26,003 bases of DNA from Thermofilum sp. ex4484_15 (GCA_002254595.1 NJEH01000017.1:1-26003); one strand, 5' to 3'. Shown: positions 1,892-23,525, numbered from the stretch's first letter. Program-made: numbers and translations. The notes: generated by a model not told the origin, from the letters alone.

Positions 1892-2874
1892 TCCTTCTCA
1901 CCTTTCACTTCGAATTCCAATCTCCTCCTAAACCTAGGATCTAATACGTCCCTTAGTCCATCCCCTAGTAAATTAAAACCTAACGCGAATAGGAATAACA
2001 TGAAGCCAGGTATTAAGGAGTACCACCATTTCTCGGGTAGGTAATCTAATCCATCGAATACTATCCTGCCTAATTCGGGGGTAGGGGGTTGGGCGCCTAA
2101 TCCTAGGAAGGATAAGTTAGCTCCCGTGAGGACTACCCCCGCTATGTCCATAGTTGTGTATATTATTAACGGGGAGATGACGTTAGGCAATATATGCTTC
2201 ACTATTATGGAGAAGTTCCCCATACCCACTGCCCTAGCCGCCTCTATGTATAGGTTCTCCTTAACCGAAAGGACCTGCCCTCTAATTAGCCTCACGTAAC
2301 CTGGCCACCATACGGTTATTAAAGCTATTATAGCGCTCATTAAACCGGCTCCTAAGGAGGCCGAAATGGCCATAGCTAGTACTAGTGCTGGGAACGCTAG
2401 GAACATATCGGTAATCCTCGATATTACCTCATCTACCTTACCGCCGTAGTAGCCAGCTATTAAGCCTAGTATAATGCCTATAGGTATCGCTACCACTAAT
2501 ACTACTAACGAATACACTAAGGATACCTGTATCCCCAGCATGGATCTAGCGAATATATCCCTCCCGTAATCGTCGGTACCGAACCAATGTTTCCAACTAG
2601 GCGGTTGAAGTACGTCGAGGGACCAATCGAAAGCGTTAAAGGAAGGTTCGGTCCTTATAATGCCGTGAGAATATAGGAAGCCCATTAGGCCTCTTATGCC
2701 ATCGAGTATCCAAGGTCCGAAAACCCCTAGGATAACGAATATAATTACCATTATTGAACCGGCTACTGAAAGCGGCGATCTCTTAAAAGCGTAGAACATT
2801 AACCGGTATTCCTCTATTTTCGCTGCATTCTTAAATTTCCATTTTTCATACCTCTCCTTGAGGGATTTAAACAT
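1888..2874 (-). CDS. oppC: Peptide ABC transporter permease (OppC/DppC)
   Basis: HWFGTDDYGRDIF motif, EAA loop (YIEAARAVGMGNFSIIVKHILPN), LSFLGLGAQPPTPELG, multiple TM helices. The ATG overlaps the oppB TAA. Confidence 0.95.
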   Translation of the reverse strand: MFKSLKERYEKWKFKNAAKIEEYRLMFYAFKRSPLSVAGSIMVIIFVILGVFGPWILDGIRGLMGFLYSHGIIRTEPSFNAFDWSLDVLQPPSWKHWFGTDDYGRDIFARSMLGIQVSLVYSLVVLVVAIPIGIILGLIAGYYGGKVDEVISRITDMFLAFPALVLAMAISASLGAGLMSAIIALITVWWPGYVRLIRGQVLSVKENLYIEAARAVGMGNFSIIVKHILPNVISPLIIYTTMDIAGVVLTGANLSFLGLGAQPPTPELGRIVFDGLDYLPEKWWYSLIPGFMLFLFALGFNLLGDGLRDVLDPRFRRRLEFEVKGEKE

Positions 2875-3881
2875 TACAACCTCACCCTTGGATCTACAGC
2901 TCCGTAAAGCAAGTCAACTACTAAGTTAACTAATAAGTAAGTCATGACTATTAAGAAGGTGGTAGCCATAATTACGGGTATATCCATGGACCTTAATACA
3001 GCCATAACAGTATATCTACCGGCACCAGCTAGCGCAAATACAGTCTCGGTAATGAAGGCCCCCCCGAGTAACCCTCCGAACATCAACCCTCCTACGGTTA
3101 TTATAGGTATGATGGCGTTCTTCATAGCATGCTTGAGTACTACCATCCTCTCCGGTAAGCCCTTCATCCTAGTATAATCGATGTACTCGGAACTTAAAGC
3201 ATCTAAGAGGCTTCCCCTCATTAACCTAGCTATTACGCCGGCATTAGGTAAGGCTAGGGAGAAGGCAGGTAAGAATAAATGCCTTAAGTTATCAATGAAA
3301 GAACTCCAATCTCCGCATAATAAGCTATCTAAGAGGTACATGCCCGTATATATTTTGGCTGGAGGTTTACCTAAGCCTATGCCGGGGAACCAACCTAACT
3401 TCCAATAAAATAATAACTGGATGCCTATAGCCCATAGGAAGTAAGGCATGGAGTAAGCCACTAAGGAGAATACCCTAATTACGTAATCGATCCACTTATC
3501 TTGTTTCATCGCCGCTACGATACCTAACGGTACTCCTATTAAGAGTATTAACGCCTCCCCGGCGATCGCTAATTGAACGGTAACCGGGTAGTAATCACGT
3601 AGGTCCTCGAAGATAGGCCTTCCGCTCATCATTGAAGTACCCCAATGCCCGGTGAATAGATCTCTAACGTAGTAAGCGAATTGTTCCCACCAAGGCTTAT
3701 CTAAGTGGTAAAGCTGTTCTAACCTCTTTAACGCTTCTAAGTTTAAGTGCCTAGCGAAACCTGCTTTAGCTGGCATCATGGGTACTACATGGGAGACTAT
3801 AAACGTTATAAATAGAGCACCTAGGATAGTAGGTATAAATGTCAGTAACCTCCTTATCAGGTAATACTTATACTCCGCCAC
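2874..3881 (-). CDS. oppB: Peptide ABC transporter permease (OppB/DppB)
   Basis: YLIRRLLTFIPT start, GxWGTS, EAA loop (YIDYTRMKGLPERMVVLKHAMKNA), VDLLYGAVDPRVRL end. GTG start with GGGGGT RBS. Confidence 0.95.
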   Translation of the reverse strand: MAEYKYYLIRRLLTFIPTILGALFITFIVSHVVPMMPAKAGFARHLNLEALKRLEQLYHLDKPWWEQFAYYVRDLFTGHWGTSMMSGRPIFEDLRDYYPVTVQLAIAGEALILLIGVPLGIVAAMKQDKWIDYVIRVFSLVAYSMPYFLWAIGIQLLFYWKLGWFPGIGLGKPPAKIYTGMYLLDSLLCGDWSSFIDNLRHLFLPAFSLALPNAGVIARLMRGSLLDALSSEYIDYTRMKGLPERMVVLKHAMKNAIIPIITVGGLMFGGLLGGAFITETVFALAGAGRYTVMAVLRSMDIPVIMATTFLIVMTYLLVNLVVDLLYGAVDPRVRL

Positions 3882-3959
3882 CTATACCCCCGTCCTTGGG
3901 ATATTACGAGCTGTTAGTCATATATGAGTACGTCCTAATTATCGTTTTCCATATTAACT

Positions 3960-4006
3960 TTAGAAAAGAATTATTACGAAAAAATATAATGAAAAATTTT
4001 CAGAAG
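3960..4006 (-). terminator. T-rich tract downstream of oppA (candidate archaeal terminator/attenuator)
   Basis: The minus strand reads ..aaaatttttcattatattttttcgtaataattcttttctaa just after the oppA stop, within a 125-nt gap before oppB. Confidence 0.35.
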
Positions 4007-5923
4007 CTAGCCTTTAACTACCTTTACCTCGGAGAAATCCCAGCCTCCCCAGAGTAATGGGTAAGCGTAGTCGTCAGGATCTACGTAATCGGGAGCCCAA
4101 CCCACTATGTAGACGTCGAACTCTCCCCTGGAGGTCTTCCTTAAGTAAGTAGGCCAGGCCAATGCCTTTACCTTAACATTGAAACCTAACCTACCCCACT
4201 CCCTCTGGAGTAAGGTAGCTATCATCTCCCTGATCTTGTTACCTTGGTTATATAAGATGGTTATAGTGTACTTAGAAGGATCTATACCGGACTTCTTGAT
4301 TAACTCCTTAGCCTTAGTTATGTTGTAGGTGTACTTAATTAATCCCTTCTCGGTATAGCCTGGCATACCCCTAGGTAATACTCCGTACAAAGGCTCGTAA
4401 TGCTTCCTAAATACGTTCTTGTAGATGAACTCATAAGGTATAGCGTAGGCTAACGCCCTCCTAACTAACGTATTGTTGAAGGGAGCCCTCATGTTATTTA
4501 ATACTATGAAGAGTATATCGAAAGTATCCCCTACCCATGGCATTAAGAAGTGCCAAGTCTTACCCTTATAGGTTAAAGTAACGTGCTCTAACTTATACTC
4601 GGAAGCCGGGAATACGGCGCCCATGTCGGCATCCCCCTTGGAGAGAACCATGATCCTAGTCTGCTCTTCGGGGACTATCTTCGAAATGTACTCCTTTATC
4701 TTAGGCTTCGGGTAACCCCAGTAGTAGGGGTTAGCCCTTATCTTTAAGTACCTCTCGTGCTTCCACTCGACTAAGTAGTAAGCTCCAGTACCTACTGGGT
4801 GTTCATCCAACCACTTGAGGGCTAAGGGGTCCTTGGTCGAATTGTGCATAGCTACTACCTTCTCGCTTACTATATCGCCTACGTTGCTAGCTAAGCACGC
4901 TAATATAGCTAAGTAAGGCTTATAGAGGGTTATTTCTACATAACCAGCTATTTTAGTCTTGGTCCTATGCCATGGTACGTAAGCGAACTTCTCCCTGAAT
5001 AAGTAGAGCCATTCGGGTATACTAGTTACCCTATAGTTCCTACCTAAAACGGGAGCGATCAATCCCTTACTTATAATCTTAGTCATCTCGCTCTTAGGCA
5101 CTACCCTGGCATCCTTTACGAAGTCCTTTATTATCCACTCTGGGTAGTCCTTCTTCTCATAATTAGCGGATTCTATCATCCTCTTTATTGAGTAAACTAC
5201 GTCCTTAGGAGTGAGCGGTATGGTCTTATTATCCCAGGGATCGTAGAAGACTATGCCATCCCTTATGGCGAAATATACATGTAGGCCGCTAGGATCCATA
5301 GCCCAAGCATAAGCTAACTCCGGAACGACGTTCTTCGAATCATTACCGTAGTAAAATACTAATCTATTGTATATTTGGATGCCGAAGCCCCAACCCCCAG
5401 TTTCGTAAGTTTGAGCCGGATCTAGGGACTCCGGCTCATCTATATCTAGGACTATTAACTTGTCCGGCTTAGGTCCGTTCGGATCCTTGGAGACGAAAAT
5501 TAAGTTAACCATAGCTAGTACGGGGTTAAAGAACGGTAGCTTAACCCACTCCCAATAGTGCCTCCTAGCCCTAGCCTGCCCTAGCCATATTATGGGTAAT
5601 TCCTTATTAGATATCCTCTGGATAATATTGTAAAGCTTAGTCCTTAATATGGGGTCGGTTTCGTACTTAGCTGCGTAGAGTAAAGCGTCTAGGGTAACGT
5701 TACTGTAGAAGGCAGGACCTATAGTGGAGAAACCTATTAACCTACTCTTGTTAGGCGGTACGGCCCCTTTATACACTATATAGTAGCCCTTAAGCCCAGG
5801 TATCGGGAACTTTCCCTCCCTAGGTACTTGAGCTTGGGCAAGTAAAGGTGCGGAAACGTAGAAGGAAAATACTAGGAGTAGGACTATTAGGGCAGACGCT
5901 ACCTTTAAGTAGGCCCTACTCAA
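4007..5923 (-). CDS. oppA: Family-5 peptide-binding protein (OppA/DppA), apparently circularly permuted; the ORF extends to 5971 but TTG at 5923 is the likelier start
   Basis: SBP_bac_5 motifs: EPESLDPA, IYNRLV, PELAYAW, PVGTGAY, VRRALAYAI, GWAPDYVDPD. N-terminal hydrophobic signal ending in LAQA. AAGGGGG RBS precedes TTG 5923. Seven N-x-S/T sequons. Confidence 0.92.
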   Translation of the reverse strand: MSRAYLKVASALIVLLLVFSFYVSAPLLAQAQVPREGKFPIPGLKGYYIVYKGAVPPNKSRLIGFSTIGPAFYSNVTLDALLYAAKYETDPILRTKLYNIIQRISNKELPIIWLGQARARRHYWEWVKLPFFNPVLAMVNLIFVSKDPNGPKPDKLIVLDIDEPESLDPAQTYETGGWGFGIQIYNRLVFYYGNDSKNVVPELAYAWAMDPSGLHVYFAIRDGIVFYDPWDNKTIPLTPKDVVYSIKRMIESANYEKKDYPEWIIKDFVKDARVVPKSEMTKIISKGLIAPVLGRNYRVTSIPEWLYLFREKFAYVPWHRTKTKIAGYVEITLYKPYLAILACLASNVGDIVSEKVVAMHNSTKDPLALKWLDEHPVGTGAYYLVEWKHERYLKIRANPYYWGYPKPKIKEYISKIVPEEQTRIMVLSKGDADMGAVFPASEYKLEHVTLTYKGKTWHFLMPWVGDTFDILFIVLNNMRAPFNNTLVRRALAYAIPYEFIYKNVFRKHYEPLYGVLPRGMPGYTEKGLIKYTYNITKAKELIKKSGIDPSKYTITILYNQGNKIREMIATLLQREWGRLGFNVKVKALAWPTYLRKTSRGEFDVYIVGWAPDYVDPDDYAYPLLWGGWDFSEVKVVKG

Positions 5924-5968
5924 ATCGACCCCCTTAAATACTTTTCGGGTTCGGAGTATTAAGTAACT

Positions 5969-5983
5969 CAAAGGATATATAAA
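5969..5983 (+). promoter_or_regulatory. BRE/TATA box in the divergent oppA / 6017 intergenic region
   Basis: caaagga-TATATAAA at 5969-5983, about 33 nt before ATG 6017. The reverse strand also reads TTTATATA. Confidence 0.45.
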
Positions 5984-6016
5984 TGTTGAGGTCTATAGAA
6001 TACTAGGAAGGATTTC

Positions 6017-6769
6017 ATGGTCCTCTTAGTGCCTTGCGCTATGCGAGATCCTTTAACAGATAGAAAGGTATTTAGGGAAGTTAGGAAGGGCTTGAATTTA
6101 AGGAAGGGTAAAGAGTTAGAAGCCGACTTAAGGCTATTCTGGATGCCCTATCAAATCATAACCTATAAGGATTATTTAGGTCGCGTAAGGAGGATGTGTA
6201 TAGACCTCCATTATTATGATGCCTTAGCTCCTTCGCACCGCTTACTTTTACTAATAAAAAATAGTTACTTGAAATTTAAGGCCGTAGAGGGTAAAGTAGG
6301 GGACGGTACCTTAGTGAAGGCTGAGGTTAAGGATTCGTATAGAGTGATATACGATATCGTAAGCTTATTCGAGAGGATAAAGGAAGGGGTAAGGGAATAT
6401 TCTAGCCTTTTAATAAGTTATGCTCATAAATTAGGTAGGGTGGATTTAGCGAGGACCCTTTTCATACCTACCGGTTTTAAATCGCTTAAGGAATTAAAGG
6501 CTATGGAGGAGGCGGGAAGGGAAAGGGGAGAGCTAATATTAATTAAAGCCATTATAGAGGGCGGTTTAAACTTAGGAAAGCCACCTTTAGGAGTTTCGAG
6601 AGAATTAAAGGTATTTTATTTTCCTAAAGTATTGGCCAAGTACGGAGGGAAGGTAGCTTTCGTAGAGGTAGGCGGTAAAAACCCCTCCTTAGATAAGGTC
6701 TTCACGTCGTTATATTCTGAAGATGAATCCTTTAAGCTCTTAACGGACGAACTATTTTCGATGGTATAA
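6017..6769 (+). CDS. Hypothetical protein (250 aa), first gene of a three-gene + strand unit
   Basis: Long ORF with a promoter upstream and a 4-nt gap to the next gene. No family recognised. Confidence 0.75.
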   Translation: MVLLVPCAMRDPLTDRKVFREVRKGLNLRKGKELEADLRLFWMPYQIITYKDYLGRVRRMCIDLHYYDALAPSHRLLLLIKNSYLKFKAVEGKVGDGTLVKAEVKDSYRVIYDIVSLFERIKEGVREYSSLLISYAHKLGRVDLARTLFIPTGFKSLKELKAMEEAGRERGELILIKAIIEGGLNLGKPPLGVSRELKVFYFPKVLAKYGGKVAFVEVGGKNPSLDKVFTSLYSEDESFKLLTDELFSMV

Positions 6770-9295: not shown

Positions 9296-10114
9296 CTATA
9301 ACCTTACGGTATGTACCCTCCAAACCCTCTTACCCGTTAATAATTTCCTAAATTCCTCGGCCCAATAAGTTACGTAGCAAGCTAAGTACCCTAAGATACC
9401 TCTCCATAAGCCCTTGGAACCTATTTCCCCCCAGTACCTACCGCCTAGGAACCTAACCACCGGGACTTCCCTATTCCCCTCCTTAAGTAACTTAATACCG
9501 TACTTACGTATCTTAAGGCCTACGTCGGTATCCTCCCCTACATTATACTCCTCGCTAAATCCGCCTATTATTTCGAAAATGTCCTTCCTGCAGGAGAATA
9601 ACCAGCCGGGGAGGTAGTAAAGCTTAAGGTAATTTATGAGGAATTTGGGGAGTAAATTCACGTTTATTTCCTCCATTAATCTAACTAAAAGCCCCCTGAA
9701 CCCCTTTAAGTATCTAGTTACCGGTTTCACTTTATACCTTATGGCCGCTAGGTAAGGGTTAGACGAAAAAGCTTTAAGCGTACCTTCTAGGAAATCGATG
9801 GCCAGCCTATCGTCAGCACCCATGAATACTAGGTACTTTACCGCTCTGGAGCTATGCCTAACTCCTAAGTTTCTAGCCTTACCTATCCCTTCCTCCCTTA
9901 TAGTAATTAACTTCACGTTAAGCCCTCTCTCCTTAAATTCTCCAATTACGCCTTCGAGCTCGCTTTTACCATCCGGTTTATAATCCACTACTATAACTTC
10001 ATAAAGCTCCTTAGGTATGGATTGGCGAAGTAGTGAGGTTAAGCAAGACCTTAATGTGGATTCCGATTCCCCTTTAGTGGGTATAATGACGCTTACTAAG
10101 GGCCCCTCCCTCAA
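9296..10114 (-). CDS. Glycosyltransferase family 2 (ORF extends to 10183; TTG at 10114 overlapping the upstream TGA is the likelier start)
   Basis: LVSVIIPT, GIGKARNLG, FMGADD, FEIIGGFSEEYNVGEDTD (GT2 GGF..ED motif). Confidence 0.85.
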   Translation of the reverse strand: MREGPLVSVIIPTKGESESTLRSCLTSLLRQSIPKELYEVIVVDYKPDGKSELEGVIGEFKERGLNVKLITIREEGIGKARNLGVRHSSRAVKYLVFMGADDRLAIDFLEGTLKAFSSNPYLAAIRYKVKPVTRYLKGFRGLLVRLMEEINVNLLPKFLINYLKLYYLPGWLFSCRKDIFEIIGGFSEEYNVGEDTDVGLKIRKYGIKLLKEGNREVPVVRFLGGRYWGEIGSKGLWRGILGYLACYVTYWAEEFRKLLTGKRVWRVHTVRL

Positions 10115-11222
10115 GTTCTCATACCCAGATACCAAGGCCTCCCTATCCCCACATACCTCACTCCCTTTAACTTCGCTTCCCATCCGCTTAATACCCCCCT
10201 AGTATCTATCACGCCGACGGCATCCCTACCGCTTAATTCCTTAATTTCGCTCACCTTCATTCCCTTATAATTAGAGTGATCGGTAACCACTATTACTAGA
10301 TCGGAACCCTTTAATGCTAACCTTAAATCGTTAATTAACTTCACTCCTAACCTCTCCAGCTCCGGATCATGACCTATAAAGGGGTCGTGAACTACCAATT
10401 CCCTTACTTCCTCTTTTAATGATGAAATTATACCGTACGTTGGAGATAACCTAGAATCGTTAATATCGCCCCTAAAGGCTAAACCTAGGATAGTTACCTT
10501 GGAGTTCGAAGGATCCTTGCCTAATTCTTCAAGTAATTCAAGAGCTAATTTAGCTACTTCAGCAGGCATGTTCTCGTTTACCGTTCTAGCTAACTCGATT
10601 AAAGGTAACTTTACCCCTAACCTCTTAGCTATGTAAAGTACGTACTTAGGGTATATAGGGATGCAAGCCCCTCCTACCCCGGGTCCCGGCTTATGTAAGT
10701 GGCAGTAGGGTTGGGAGTTAGCTATTTCGATTATTTCCCAGAAGTCCAACCCCAATTTAGATATCAAGGGGGCTAGTTCGTTAACAAGGGCTATATTTAC
10801 GTCCCTATAGACCCCTTCCAGTAATTTTTCCAATTCAGCAGCGGTAGGGTTGCTCATGGTTAAAACCCCCTTTCTAGCTACCAACGAGTACAGGTCCTTA
10901 ACTACTTTAGTACTCCTGGGACCTACTCCCGCTACAACCTTAGGGTACCTCTCTTCTATGTCCTGTACCGCTCTACCTATAAGGATCCTCTCCGGGCTGT
11001 AAGCTAAAGCGAAATCATCCTCGCATTTAAGGCCGCTACGCGATTCTAACAGGGGTAAGGCTACCCTTAAGGTAGTAGTAGGGGGTACCGAGGATTCTAT
11101 TATTACTACATCGCCTTTATCGAGTCCCTTAGCTATGTCTGTTAAAGCGCTATTTAAGATTTACCCCCCGATATTAACCGTTTTAACTCGCTCCGCTCCA
11201 TTTCGAGTAGGTTAATTTTCAA
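10111..11222 (-). pseudogene. UDP-glucose/GDP-mannose dehydrogenase family (WecC/UDP-GlcNAc dehydrogenase-like) gene with internal deletion and frameshift
   Basis: The frame is open from 11160 (ILNSALTDIAKGLDKGDVVIIESSVPP..AYSPER..ELEKLLEG..GPGVGGACIP..GLAFRGD..DLVIVVTDH) to the stop at 10111. The N-terminus MKINLLEMERSELKRLISGGK (TTG 11222) is in another frame and stops at 11154. The GxGxxG NAD-binding segment is absent. Confidence 0.85.
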
Positions 11223-17558: not shown

Positions 17559-18530
17559 TTACTCGCTACCTAATTCCTTCCTTACTTTCCTAACAGCTTC
17601 CACCATTACCTTAAGCTTACTTAGAGCTATTTCCCTAGGTAATAACTTAAGGCCGCAATCGGGATCTACGTATATCTTCTCAGGCCCTATTACCTCAAGA
17701 GCCATCTTTATCCCTCTTACCACCTCCTCTACGCTTTCGACCCTCAGGGTATGTACGTCTACTACACCTAAGCCCAACTCCTTATCGAAGGAATACTCCT
17801 TAAGTACGGGTAACAATCTATACCCGCTATTCTTCATCTCGAGATCTACCTGATCTACTGGAAACTCCAGTAGGTCGGGGAAGAGTCTCTCTAACTTACC
17901 GTAACATATATGTATTATCCTCTTAGCATTAATCCCCTTAAAAACCTCCCTTAAAGCCTCCCTAGCCAATTCCATATCTTGCCTTTCCCTATGGGTTGAA
18001 AGTGCGGGTTCGTCCACTTGTATGTATTTAGCGCCGGCTCTCTCCAGCTCCTTAACTTCCTCATGTAGGGCCCTAGCTAAATCTATGACTAATTCTTCCC
18101 TTTCCTTGTAGTACTCATTAAAGGACCAATCAGCCATGGTATAGGGGCCCGTAATGATACCTTTAACAGGCCTTCCCTTCGAGAAGGCTAATGCATATTT
18201 CCAATCCTTTACAGTTATAGGTCGCTTAAACTTGACCTCCCCTATTACTACCGGTTTCCTAAAGTAAATGTTATCGAAAACCCTTACCCAGCCACTTATC
18301 CTAAAGCCTTCCAGCCTTTCTGCGAAGAATACAGCCATATCCTCCCTTCTTTGTTCACCATCAGAAATTATATCTATACCGGCGTTTAAGTAATCCTTAA
18401 CTACCAGTTTGGTGGCTTCCATTATTGCCTTATCTAACTCCTCCTCACCTATATCCCCCTTCCTATACCTTCTTAAAGCTTCCTTGGCCACTTCGAACTT
18501 AGGGTAACTACCTACTACCGTAGTAGGCAA
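17559..18530 (-). CDS. metE: Cobalamin-independent methionine synthase, catalytic (C-terminal-half) subunit
   Basis: [31 protein letters not shown]; Zn ligands IHICYG, DLE and VDPDCGL. Confidence 0.9.
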
Positions 18531-18552
18531 TACCTTAGGAACCTCATACCTC

Positions 18553-19536
18553 CTACTCGTAATACCTCCTCACCTCCTTGGTTGCTTCGCTAAGTACCTT
18601 CAACTTAAGGAAGGCCCTTTCGTAAGGTATATAGTCTAACCAAGTATTAGGCGTTAAATGTAACTCTTTTACATCGATATGCTTAAGTACCTTCGCTAAG
18701 GTGGTAGCTAAATCCTTCGGGTCCTCTAGCTTCGTATTCCTAGCATCCACTATCCCTAAGGAGAGAGCTTTAGCCCCTTCAAAGTACCTACTCAAATCCG
18801 CTAACCCCTTCTTACAACTAATTAGATCTAAACCTACCATGTAAATACCTACGTCGAATAATGCTTGGAGGAATTTAGGGTTTAAGCAACCGAAATAAGT
18901 AGCCACTATGGATTTGAAGGGTAAACCTTTAACTAATCCTCCAATTACCTCTAAGTAAGCTTCAAAGTGTTCGATTTTTAACTCCTCCTCCGTGAGGATA
19001 GGTTCGTCGAATTGTAAGTAATCGGCCCTTATTTCCTTTAAATAGGAGAGTTCCCTTTTAAGGGCATTACCTAACTCCCATATTAATTCGTTTAACTTAG
19101 GGTAATACTCGTTCCTACATAAGTACGCCATAGTTAAAGGTCCGGGTACTACTAACTTTACCCTTTTCCTCGCTACTTTAACCGCTAGGCCGTACTCCTC
19201 GGTTAATAATGGATGCCTCCACCTTAATTTGCCCTTTACTACAGGTACCCTGTAATAGAAATTATTGTCGAAGAACCTAAGCAAACCGTTAAGTTCTACA
19301 CCTTCAAGCCCTTCCATGAACTTAGTTATTAAATCGTCCCATAGGAGCATGCCGCTAGTTATTACGTCTAAGCCCGCGATCTCCTGTAATCTTATTATCC
19401 TTACCGTACATTCCGAGGCCTTACGGAGTAATTCCCCCCTAGTTAATTTACCTCGTTTAAAACGGTCTATGGCCTTCCTTAAATCTGGCGGCCTAGGGTA
19501 ATTACCCAAATTAGCACTTAGTATTTCCAAGTTCAA
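18553..19536 (-). CDS. MetE N-terminal-half homologue (non-catalytic, folate-binding subunit of split MetE)
   Basis: [42 protein letters not shown]. The HxC and DCGL Zn ligands are replaced ([14 protein letters not shown]). Confidence 0.85.
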
Positions 19537-20678: not shown

Positions 20679-21695
20679 TTAACTGGACTTACCCCATATC
20701 CAACCGCTATTAAAGTAATTGTCAGGTACATAATCTACGGTAACTACTTTTAACTGCTCGAAGGAGAAAAGCCTTGCTTCCGTTCTTACGCTTAAGTACC
20801 TTAAGGGTACTTCATAAACCATCCTATTGCCTACTACGAACCCTGGAAACGGTAGTATTAATCTCCAGGACTTAGTATTTTGATCCCACTTAAACAGATA
20901 ACCGGCTATGTACATTCCCCTAAAGGGCCCTTCCCTACACTTAAAGGCCTGTAATTCTAAAAGGTAGTCGGCTCCGTACTTACCGGTGGACATGTTACCA
21001 TCGCTATCTAGATACAACTCATAACTTAACTTCGCGGATATACTGTCACCTAGTAAGGTAGGTATGGGGTAATCGAAGAAGGCCAAATCTATTTCTAACA
21101 ACGTATTGTTATTTAGCCTAATACTTAAGGACTTTAAATCGCACCAAGGAGGTAAGTTATCCCTTCCATCCTCGATTACTTCTACGGCCTTAGGGCCTAA
21201 GGAGGACCAAGGAAGATTTATCGCGGTTAAGGGATCCCTAGTGGTTACCTTTACCAGTAGTTTAACCCTACTACCCTGATCGAAGTACTTAGATGGTAGT
21301 TCCACCGCTACACTATTCCCTAATATAGCTAAGTAAGCCTTACCTACCGCCCTGAAGGCGTTTCCATACCATTTATATAGCCCAGCTCCGCAATTATCGA
21401 AAAAGAGGGCATAATCTGCTCCGGTAATACTTCCCTTCTTACATCCCGTAGCAGGTAGGGAATCCTTATCAATGTAAATTACTCCCTTAAGTCTTATCCC
21501 TATAGGTAGGTATCCCCTGAAGCTTAACTTTATGGTGTAATTGCCATCGCTAGACTTATTGAACGTAACTTCGCTTACGTCAGCGTAAAAAGGACCATCC
21601 TTTAAGTTTAAGGGATCCTTAAAGGGATTAGGATAAGCTAAGTTAAGCGATAATAAATACGTTAAGGTTAAAGTTAAAATTAGAACTAGCTTCAT
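20679..21695 (-). CDS. Secreted/surface protein with two tandem beta-rich (DOMON-like) repeats
   Basis: Signal peptide MKLVLILTLTLTYLLSLNLA. Repeated motif IYIDKDSLPATG..GADY..LYKW..GNSVAVELP / LYLDSDGNMSTG..GADY..LFKW..GNRMVYEVP. 9 nt downstream of the MoxR-VWA gene, with a GGGGT RBS. Confidence 0.78.
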   Translation of the reverse strand: MKLVLILTLTLTYLLSLNLAYPNPFKDPLNLKDGPFYADVSEVTFNKSSDGNYTIKLSFRGYLPIGIRLKGVIYIDKDSLPATGCKKGSITGADYALFFDNCGAGLYKWYGNAFRAVGKAYLAILGNSVAVELPSKYFDQGSRVKLLVKVTTRDPLTAINLPWSSLGPKAVEVIEDGRDNLPPWCDLKSLSIRLNNNTLLEIDLAFFDYPIPTLLGDSISAKLSYELYLDSDGNMSTGKYGADYLLELQAFKCREGPFRGMYIAGYLFKWDQNTKSWRLILPFPGFVVGNRMVYEVPLRYLSVRTEARLFSFEQLKVVTVDYVPDNYFNSGWIWGKSS

Positions 21696-21704
21696 ACCCC
21701 CATC

Positions 21705-23525
21705 TTATAGATCCATCAATATTGTAGGTAATTCATCCGGTATCTCCCTAACGTTCCTTATCAATACGAACTTCCCTCCTCCGTAGTTAGCTAAGAGCCT
21801 CGAAAAGGAAAGTAACCTACTAGGTACGCAAATTACGTGCAACCTATCGTAGAGGGTAACTTTATTTAATGGGTTCTCGCCGGCCGTCCACTCCCCATCG
21901 GTTATTAATATGCCTACCTTCCTCTTAACCCCCTGGCTATCCAATTCCAGGAAATTCTCCTCTAAAGCCCTGGATATATCGGTATAACCCACCGGAGATA
22001 GGTTTAGTATCTCTCCCACTATTTCCTCTATTGCTTTCCTCTCCTTAAGCCTTTTTATGAAGTCGACGTTAGTATTAAAAGCCGAAACTACGAAGTTACC
22101 GAAGGGGTTAAGCCTAGCTATTACGGCTGCTACCAAGGCCGCTAATATCATTTTATATCCCGTCATGGAGAAGCTCCTATCTATTATTATCGCATAAGCT
22201 TCGTCGAAACCGGTCCTATTTAAAGCTACTACCTTATCGGGACTTAAAGGAGGATTCTCGAGTACCCTATCAATTGTGGCATCTATATCTATCTCCAAGC
22301 TGGAAGAGTTTAACGGCCCCCTCCTCAACTTCTTAAGCTTTCCTCCCTTTACATTACTCTCCGCTAACTTTATGATTAAATTAGATGCGTACTCCTTGAC
22401 CTTATCCTTAAGTTCCGGGTTTAAGTAATCCATTAACCTACCGTATACCTCTAAGGCGTCAGCGTCCCTTAAGCCTCCCTGCCCTCCTACTAGCTTAAGT
22501 ACGTAACTGGGATCTCTCCTTATCAATGGCAATAAGGATAAGGGGTTCCTATAAGCTATGGTAACTACGTTCGATACCGTAGGCTCCCCTAGCTCCTCCC
22601 CTTCCTCATCGCCTTCCCGAAAAAAATCCCCTCTGGGTCCCGAAGGGCTCCTCCTCTCCTCCAATAGTTTAGTTAGTAACTCCCTTATTAGCTCCTCTAC
22701 GGAAGTCCTAGGATCCTTAAGCCATATCTTACTGGACATACCTAGGACGGCCGCATCGTATAGATCCTCGAAACTTAATCCTCCGTTCATCCTTTCAAGC
22801 TCCTTCGCGATTAGTACCATATCTATAGCTCCCCTTACCGATGCGCCCATTTTAACTGAGGGGTGTAACCTAGTAGCCCTAGCTAAATCTACCGCTAATT
22901 CTATTAACCATTCATCCTTACTTCCCGTCTTTAACTTAACTATCTCAACTTCCTCCTCCCTACTTTGATAGGATAACTTCAACCTTGCAAATCGATCCAT
23001 TATAGCCCTACTCACTTTAGTAGTACCTACATCGTCGTAAGGGTTCTGCGAACATATTACTCTAAAGGTAGGGCCCGCTCTAACTATACCGTACCTAGGT
23101 ATTACTAATTCCCTCTCCTCCATGGCCCTTATTAGGACGTTAGCTACATCTTCGGGCATTCTATTAAACTCCTCGATATACAATAATCCTCCTTTCTCCA
23201 TAGCTAAAGTCAAGGGCCCAGGTTCGAAGAATTCCTTCTTAAAGCCTTCGGCCATTACCTTAGCAGGGTTAAAATTCCCTATTAGCTTTTGGGGGGTGAG
23301 GTCCGCATTTCCTTCTACCATGTAAAAAGGTAAATTAACTTCCTCCGCTATAGCCCTTAAAATAGTGGATTTAGTAGTGCCTGGGGGCCCCTCTAATAGG
23401 AGGTTTTTACCAGCTGCTAGGGCTGCTAGAATCGCCTTAAGTTCCCTTCTCCTACCTACTATTTTACTGGAAACCCTTTCGTAAAGCCCATCATCTCGAA
23501 ATACGTCCTCATCCATCCCGATCAA
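21705..23525 (-). CDS. MoxR-family AAA+ ATPase fused to a VWA domain (CoxD/CoxE-like); ATG 23516 is an alternative start
   Basis: LLLEGPPGTTKS (Walker A), LLYIEEFNR (Walker B), SQNP, AIMDRF, GASVRG; acidic linker; VWA MIDAS IIDRSFSM, GYTDI, ILITDG. Confidence 0.92.
   Translation of the reverse strand: MIGMDEDVFRDDGLYERVSSKIVGRRRELKAILAALAAGKNLLLEGPPGTTKSTILRAIAEEVNLPFYMVEGNADLTPQKLIGNFNPAKVMAEGFKKEFFEPGPLTLAMEKGGLLYIEEFNRMPEDVANVLIRAMEERELVIPRYGIVRAGPTFRVICSQNPYDDVGTTKVSRAIMDRFARLKLSYQSREEEVEIVKLKTGSKDEWLIELAVDLARATRLHPSVKMGASVRGAIDMVLIAKELERMNGGLSFEDLYDAAVLGMSSKIWLKDPRTSVEELIRELLTKLLEERRSPSGPRGDFFREGDEEGEELGEPTVSNVVTIAYRNPLSLLPLIRRDPSYVLKLVGGQGGLRDADALEVYGRLMDYLNPELKDKVKEYASNLIIKLAESNVKGGKLKKLRRGPLNSSSLEIDIDATIDRVLENPPLSPDKVVALNRTGFDEAYAIIIDRSFSMTGYKMILAALVAAVIARLNPFGNFVVSAFNTNVDFIKRLKERKAIEEIVGEILNLSPVGYTDISRALEENFLELDSQGVKRKVGILITDGEWTAGENPLNKVTLYDRLHVICVPSRLLSFSRLLANYGGGKFVLIRNVREIPDELPTILMDL
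22620..22626 (-). other. T7 homopolymer (candidate slippage/frameshift site) at the AAA+/VWA junction
   Basis: The minus strand reads AGA GGG GAT TTT TTT CGG; stops at 22606-22608 (-1 frame) and 22589-22591 (+1 frame). Confidence 0.4.

Follow-up and report, generated by a model that had tools for sequence, protein, structure and literature searches.

A naturally permuted family-5 substrate-binding protein in Thermofilum sp. ex4484_15 and its re-cut relatives in the Thermoproteota

INTRODUCTION

Binding proteins of ATP-binding cassette (ABC) importers share a textbook bilobed fold and are workhorses of biosensor engineering, in which places for artificial circular permutation and insertion are looked for by trial. 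In canonical members of cluster C (family 5; Pfam SBP_bac_5, PF00496), the chain is collinear and runs from an N-terminal strand through domain II, the rest of domain I, and domain III to C-terminal helices and a strand that returns to domain I. The C-terminal segment supplies one of the two strands that link the lobes, and D408 of DppA, which lies in domain III, binds the α-amino group of the peptide (PMC8566422). Here, we analyze a stretch of 26,003 nucleotides (nt) from Thermofilum sp. ex4484_15 (GCA_002254595.1, NJEH01000017.1:1-26003), referred to below as the window, in which a gene on the minus strand very probably encodes a functional, membrane-tethered binding protein of a Dpp/Opp-type ABC importer, with a naturally occurring circular permutation of the cluster C fold.

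Our search of the literature on natural circular permutation in oligopeptide-, solute-, and periplasmic-binding proteins returned only TpMglB-2 (Tp0684) of Treponema pallidum and engineered sensors based on cpGFP, a circular permutant of green fluorescent protein, and no solved structure or paper on natural permutation within cluster C, the large peptide/nickel/oligosaccharide class, was found among PDB sequences or in the literature. For TpMglB-2, a class of circularly permuted ligand-binding proteins termed “Type Ic / Cluster Bc” has been proposed (PMC4990184). Sugars are known ligands of archaeal and Thermotoga members of the cluster C family, and the archaeal members bind peptides too (Nanavati 2006, cited in PMC3047682).

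RESULTS AND DISCUSSION

Order of the parts along the chain

The window protein is a homologue of PF00496/cluster C with a permuted topology and not a canonical member. The approximately 80 residues that are usually last now lie behind the N-terminal anchor and are joined by 8 residues to the canonical N terminus, and the new C terminus comes shortly behind the GWxxDxxDPD motif. The moved residues constitute two helices of the lobe bearing the D408 equivalent and the strand leading back to the first lobe.

The whole open frame occupies positions 4007 to 5971 of the minus strand (654 codons plus stop, counted from the first TTG, the numbering used for residues throughout), with a probable start TTG at 5921 to 5923. 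All of its parts are given on that strand. The first folded part is a “head” of lineage-specific β-strands at the new N terminus (residues 50 to 84; positions 5720 to 5824), consisting of strands E52-56 and E63-68, for which the canonical profile hidden Markov model (HMM) described below has no counterpart. It is followed by the relocated canonical C-terminal segment (residues 85 to 162; 5486 to 5719; HMM positions 433 to 489), with two helices and a long strand, and by the linker DPNGPKPD (residues 163 to 170; 5462 to 5485), where the alignment of homologues and the HMM place the fusion of the old C terminus to the old N terminus. The canonical N-terminal and middle parts come next (residues 171 to 640; 4052 to 5461; PF00496, HMM positions 26 to 422) and end in the GWAPDYVDPDDY motif, after which a “tail” (residues 641 to 654; 4010 to 4051) forms a short strand at the new C terminus.

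The Pfam match to SBP_bac_5 is limited to residues 214 to 640 (235.3 bits against a cut-off of 32.4), and a Pfam scan of residues 1 to 175 returned no match. A canonical HMM of 509 positions, built from 24 ordinary family-5 proteins, matched the window protein (P0001) in two pieces: residues 87 to 143 fell on HMM positions 433 to 489 (21.8 bits) and residues 165 to 640 on positions 26 to 422 (276 bits). Two such non-collinear domains were found in 18/18 family members (the window protein plus 17 homologues), so that the collinear order of cluster C was found in none of them and the C-terminal segment precedes the N terminus in every one. Across the family, the first domain places residues ~75 to 175 on HMM positions ~430 to 506 (18 to 38 bits) and the second places residues ~165 to 640 on positions 26 to 422 (239 to 314 bits), with a gap of 2 to 24 residues between the two matches (2 to 13 in most members).

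Searches against PDB sequences gave the same picture. With phmmer, residues ~345 to 640 matched chain residues ~160 to 445, and a weak second domain placed residues 85 to 127 on residues 444 to 486 of 5u4o. We then searched all PDB sequences with a junction profile made from residues 60 to 218 (alignment A2). Positions 31 to 104 of the profile matched extreme C termini, namely, residues 417 to 490 of 491 in 7kz8 (AapF; E value, 3.9e-9), residues 485 to 553 of 562 in 2wok (E value, 3.5e-8), and the C termini of DppE, DppA, and HbpA. Positions 105 to 154 matched extreme N termini (6ofq, 32 to 73; 8upi, 6 to 55). No chain among all PDB sequences carried both parts in one stretch. These matches to chain ends are far beyond chance.

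The junction region is also well conserved, with 22 invariant columns across 18 sequences that are 37 to 69% identical there. Invariant residues of the moved segment are P86, A96, A100, R110, Y114, Q118, I128, Q132, W140, W142, P150, and K162, and D628 of the GWxxDxxDPD motif, which aligns with D408 of DppA, is likewise invariant in the family. The preliminary description of this locus had proposed a true circular permutation, with the canonical C-terminal segment moved to the front, and had expected HMM or pairwise searches to return non-collinear hits. Such hits were obtained with the canonical HMM, phmmer, and the junction profile, and ordinary family-5 proteins cannot be aligned with the window protein collinearly over the full length; together with the homologues and the contigs discussed below, these results support the permutation.

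Predicted structure

An AlphaFold2 model computed with the family alignment had a mean predicted local distance difference test (pLDDT) score of 86.8 and a predicted template modeling score of 0.83. Over residues 50 to 170 the pLDDT was mostly 84 to 96, falling to 61 to 72 over residues 71 to 90; the head strands E52-56 and E63-68 scored ~91 to 94 and the modeled elements of the moved segment (H92-102, H107-124, and E127-136) scored ~90. In its secondary structure, the moved segment thus modeled follows the canonical succession of helix, helix, and long strand. Folded alone, the junction region (residues 60 to 218; alignment A2) reached a pLDDT of only 45.5, and this isolated model was dropped as a fold-search query because it was too poor. 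Since the segment is modeled at a pLDDT of ~90 within the full protein and of 45 alone, it is predicted to be an integral part of the fold and no autonomous domain.

Model residues ~161 to 653 form a bilobed fold with an extra domain and are superposable on solved members of cluster C. VIA-align paired them with chain residues ~1 to 445 of DppA-type structures (e.g., model residues 170 to 649 with residues 1 to 445 of 1dpe) at Z scores of 22 to 25 (~24 for DppA, HbpA, and YliB) and 20 to 26% identity, and Foldseek gave E values down to 1e-28. Both programs are sequential aligners, with coverage confined to model residues ~161 to 653; the last ~60 residues of the template and the first ~110 folded residues of the model are left unpaired. 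The AlphaFold DB entry I3ZVB1 (648 residues) aligns over residues 70 to 654 at a template modeling score of 0.78. Sequence homology, secondary structure, and model confidence together suggest that residues 85 to 162 occupy the canonical C-terminal place of the fold.

Sister chain orders and the origin of the permutation

Besides the window's order, we found three further chain orders in the Thermoproteota: type B, a cut near HMM position 280, and a cut near position 88. Type B proteins (L006 to L014 and L021 to L026; e.g., at G033:C1:1668500-1674500 and G067:C1:1143500-1150000) start after a YYWG motif at HMM position ~215. Their chain runs through the D408 motif to a contiguous tail-head module and then to the C-terminal segment, with the canonical N-terminal half coming last. 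They occur in closed genomes and always adjoin permease genes. One of them, L007 (G032:C11:13500-21500, minus frame 2741 to 6631), encodes 1,297 residues in which the type B protein is preceded by ~630 residues without family-5 similarity.

Reciprocal BLASTP searches of type B against the window type paired residues 46 to 295 of L006 with 447 to 691 of P0017 and residues 309 to 692 of L006 with 87 to 433 of P0017, and L021 and L017 were 59% identical in both swapped pieces. Judged by these alignments, each of type B and the window type is an exact cyclic rearrangement of the other. A second cut near the C terminus was found in L016 to L020 and P0124, and P0125 and P0126 are cut elsewhere again. 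In trees built on re-ordered sequences (FastTree and IQ-TREE), the window type, type B, L016 to L020 with P0124, P0125, and P0126 form one clade (100% SH-aLRT support), and the canonical proteins of the same genomes fall outside it. The proteins cut near position 280 (L027 to L031 and L034) and near position 88 (L032 and L033) come from other Thermoproteota genomes and lie outside the window protein's clade, with the position-88 type nested among canonical proteins.

In all members of the sister clade, a loop of the form GPKG-T-G-A-x-P-x-K, homologous in four re-cut orders, connects the tail (...VVVGP) and the head (...VV.Y) of the window type. The preliminary description had placed the new termini in a surface loop; that picture needs modification, as the site is not simply a bare loop. 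The window protein carries lineage-specific strands there, in the head (residues 50 to 84) and the tail (residues 641 to 654), and in the sister proteins these form one contiguous module.

Because the tail-head loop is homologous throughout the sister clade, a single tail-head fusion followed by re-cutting is the simplest reading. We tentatively propose that the window's order is the founding order of a clade of serial circular permutations. At its origin, a binding-protein gene would have been duplicated in tandem, the copies fused in frame, and both outer ends lost, leaving termini after the D408 motif, where pairing strands then grew. In the sister lineages, a further tandem duplicate may have welded tail to head through the conserved GPKG-x-P-x-K loop, and the fused form would then have been re-cut at at least four other sites. 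Two points weigh against this account: internal branching among the sister groups is a polytomy in IQ-TREE, and no tandem-fused intermediate was found inside the window protein's clade.

A possible but more doubtful origin is that an insert of ~80 residues of β-structure was first gained in the loop after GWxxDxxDPD, and that the window's order came about by a later cut inside it. The module is contiguous in four of the five chain orders of the clade, with the homologous GPKG...P...K loop, and the polytomy among groups leaves room for such a history. However, none of the ~50 canonical family-5 proteins of the order that were examined carries the insert in canonical order, the outgroups are without it, and the window type branches as sister to the clade comprising every contiguous form.

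Two further ideas about the sister groups were abandoned. Two independent switches from type A to type B, suggested by pairwise identities and the FastTree topology, did not survive the IQ-TREE polytomy and the finding that the second “type A” group is cut ~25 residues earlier; a claim of recurrent identical breakpoints was dropped after inspection of the termini.

A search of a representative library with the junction profile returned many other family-5 proteins with a C-to-N junction at other breakpoints. Natural proteins in which two to five family-5 units are fused in frame and in tandem were also observed: P0128 (4,308 residues), P0136 (2,754 residues, four full units), P0137, P0171, P0214, and P0254. 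The duplication model of circular permutation requires intermediates like these tandem-fused proteins.

What the window's family adds is evidence for serial re-permutation, with the chain re-cut at at least five different places across the group. A clade in which related proteins differ only in where the chain starts is a natural experiment on the emergence and tolerance of circular permutation. If serial re-permutation is true, proteins up to ~60% identical with different orders would form a traceable record of the permutation-by-duplication pathway, as well as a map of the sites at which a cluster C binding protein tolerates new termini. Such natural alternative termini may be usable for engineering thermostable sensors.

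Start site, anchor, and function of the window copy

The public gene call P0002 (638 residues, 100% identical) begins at the TTG at 5923, which is the upper coordinate that had been assigned to the gene at the outset. A Shine-Dalgarno-like GGGGGT (5928 to 5933, minus strand), 4 nt before that TTG, and a TATA-like box, TTTATATA (5976 to 5983, minus strand), ~55 nt upstream of the probable start, were read from the sequence and may serve in ribosome binding and as a promoter element, respectively. Both are compatible with a start at 5923, and GGGGGT would favor it over 5971, in line with the P0002 gene call. At the other end, the open frame closes with ...GWAPDYVDPDDYAYPLLWGGWDFSEVKVVKG followed by a stop codon, as originally reported, and the 125 nt between the stop and the permease gene hold no coding remnant and no frameshifted remnant.

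A hydrophobic stretch, LKVASALIVLLLVFSFYVSAPLLA (residues 22 to 45; 5837 to 5908, minus strand), is a putative signal peptide or membrane anchor. A run of hydrophobic residues is present at the same place in every homologue, often with a Ser/Thr-rich linker behind it. Inspection of these N termini (including window positions 5837 to 5923) revealed that those of P0017, P0020, P0016, and L004 begin with K/R-G, L/I-S, ~20 hydrophobic residues, and a Ser/Thr-rich linker. By eye, these are reminiscent of the N termini of sugar-binding proteins from Sulfolobus, which have class III (pilin-like) signal peptides; the Sulfolobus proteins belong to a different binding-protein family from the window protein.

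With the moved segment in its usual place, both hinge crossings would be kept, i.e., the chain would pass between the lobes twice. A ligand, peptide or oligosaccharide, would be bound and delivered in the usual Venus-flytrap way, and docking would be ordinary. The sole change would be that the tether departs from domain III, the lobe with the D408 equivalent. That the anchor has moved to the other lobe, as had been suggested from the sequence, is a reasonable inference, given that the termini come immediately behind the Asp equivalent to D408 of DppA, in domain III.

Two observations count against a functional, permuted binding protein. None of the NCBIfam equivalog models came near its cut-off for the window protein, which gives no substrate call; the GWxxDxxDPD motif with the D408-equivalent Asp is general to the family. 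In addition, the window copy has the shortest tail in alignment A1, with homologues ~20 to 45 residues longer and ending in ...VVVGP. It is conceivable that the gene is decaying and nonfunctional after loss of these last ~20 to 45 residues, including the ...VVVGP strand that is present in all relatives. However, the frame is otherwise clean, all invariant family residues are present, the chain end is modeled with a confidence of 79 to 90, the gene is identical or near-identical in samples from 2017, 2018, and 2025, and the promoter-like and Shine-Dalgarno-like signals and operon context are intact. Loss of function of the window copy is therefore unlikely.

It is less probable still that residues 50 to 165 are an extra N-terminal domain resembling, or duplicated from, the C-terminal segment, on a protein that is C-terminally truncated. 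The modest HMM scores of the segment (18 to 38 bits) would be consistent with this idea. Against it, no family member has another copy of the C-terminal segment, and because the canonical segment provides a lobe-linking strand (PMC8566422), folding without it is unlikely. Furthermore, the segment is modeled confidently only within the whole protein and abuts the canonical N terminus at the short distances given above, and the sister proteins contain the same parts in exactly cyclic rearrangement. A functional permuted binding protein thus remains our preferred reading.

Distribution and continuity of the assembly

The same order was found in 18 homologues at 40 to 67% identity. Full-span matches to the junction profile were obtained in 13/41 genomes of the order and in ~31/301 sampled genomes of the phylum, including closed single-contig genomes, so that the request of the preliminary description for homologues with the same order has been answered. 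Selection has conserved the permuted order in many genomes, always with permease genes adjoining. Because the order is widespread in Thermoproteota genomes, the window gene is a member of a widespread, apparently undescribed archaeal family and not a one-off.

The window derives from a metagenome-assembled genome that is 53% complete and comprises 67 contigs, but the chance that assembly or binning created its order by joining fragments of one or two ordinary binding-protein genes into a chimera is vanishingly small: contigs from three runs (different samples and studies, some of which may be the source of the window itself) each span positions 3700 to 6300 in one piece, with 0 to 1 differences and no joints or loose ends, a 962-nt contig of a fourth run, from 2025, crosses the junction, the identical protein of P0002 is found on 4 contigs, and the order recurs in closed genomes and at least 18 diverged homologues. 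The spanning contigs came from marine sediment (2017) and hydrothermal vents (2018), and they provide the continuity across this region that the original proposal had asked to have checked.

The family also carries a warning for annotation, as Pfam covers only part of the protein and relatives are labeled “hypothetical” or “DNA-binding.” The NCBI record of the permuted homologue P0016, for example, reads “DNA-binding protein,” and other relatives are recorded as “hypothetical protein.”

Operon and neighboring genes

The binding-protein gene heads a DppBCDF-type operon on the minus strand, with two permeases and two ATPases bearing the oligo_HPY extension downstream: a DppB/OppB-type permease (2874 to 3881; PF00528 and PF19300), a DppC/OppC-type permease (1888 to 2874; PF00528 and PF12911), a DppD-type ATPase (914 to 1891; PF00005 and PF08352 oligo_HPY), and a DppF-type ATPase (1 to 909; PF00005 and PF08352), the 3' end of which lies off the window. 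The operon, initially called intact, is so as far as the window reaches, and its last ATPase gene extends beyond the window's end. Permease and ATPase genes likewise follow the binding-protein gene immediately in all related loci checked. Divergently transcribed from the binding-protein gene is a 250-residue open reading frame (ORF) without a Pfam match (6017 to 6769, plus strand).

Farther along the minus strand, a UDP-glucose/GDP-mannose dehydrogenase frame (10111 to 11160) contains the central and C-terminal domains. Read from stop to stop, it begins within the N-terminal NAD-binding domain, lacks ~80 residues and the glycine-rich loop, and lies immediately against a flavin reductase gene; the gene may be truncated at its 5' end. 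Two adjacent ORFs of ~325 residues each (17559 to 19536) match the Meth_synt_1 and Meth_synt_2 halves of cobalamin-independent methionine synthase, a split archaeal MetE-like arrangement with an MTHFR-like gene adjacent. An ORF of 338 residues (20679 to 21695) has no Pfam match. The ORF at 21705 to 23525 was at first taken, from its place in a second operon-like cluster, as a second binding protein for use as a comparator and was rejected. It encodes one 606-residue protein that combines a MoxR-type AAA+ ATPase (AAA_5/AAA_3) with a C-terminal VWA domain; MoxR-type AAA+ ATPases and VWA proteins are usually encoded by separate neighboring genes.

Comparison with known binding proteins

The canonical cluster C proteins of solved structure (Escherichia coli DppA, 1dpp/1dpe; Helicobacter pylori DppA, 6ofq; HbpA/GbpA, 3m8u/3tpa; the Bacillus anthracis protein 5u4o; and YliB/GsiB, 1uqw) belong to the same sequence family as the window protein and share with it the predicted fold of residues 161 to 653, the GWxxDxxDPD motif, and DppBCDF-type partners. 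The window protein differs from them in chain order, with the last ~80 residues placed before the first, in the position of its termini behind the D408 motif, and in its additional head and tail strands. Among its close counterparts are the sister permuted family-5 proteins of the Thermoproteota, which belong to the same clade, are 37 to 45% identical to it on the re-ordered core, and have shared motifs and the same permease neighbors. In contrast to the window protein, these have their termini elsewhere, with the window type's tail and head joined by the loop.

TpMglB-2 of T. pallidum is likewise a natural, conserved permutation of a tethered ABC binding protein in which ligand binding is kept (PMC4990184). 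However, it is a sugar-binding protein of cluster B (Peripla_BP type) in which strands of the N-lobe have moved to the C terminus, whereas the window protein belongs to cluster C. In TpMglB-2, a fourth hinge crossing is needed and the moved part is poorly conserved; in the window protein, the moved part is clearly homologous to its canonical counterpart and the crossings would be unchanged. All sequence and fold matches of the window protein are to cluster C, which places it outside the “Type Ic / Cluster Bc” class with its cluster B fold. The likeness between the two proteins is an analogy of phenomenon only.

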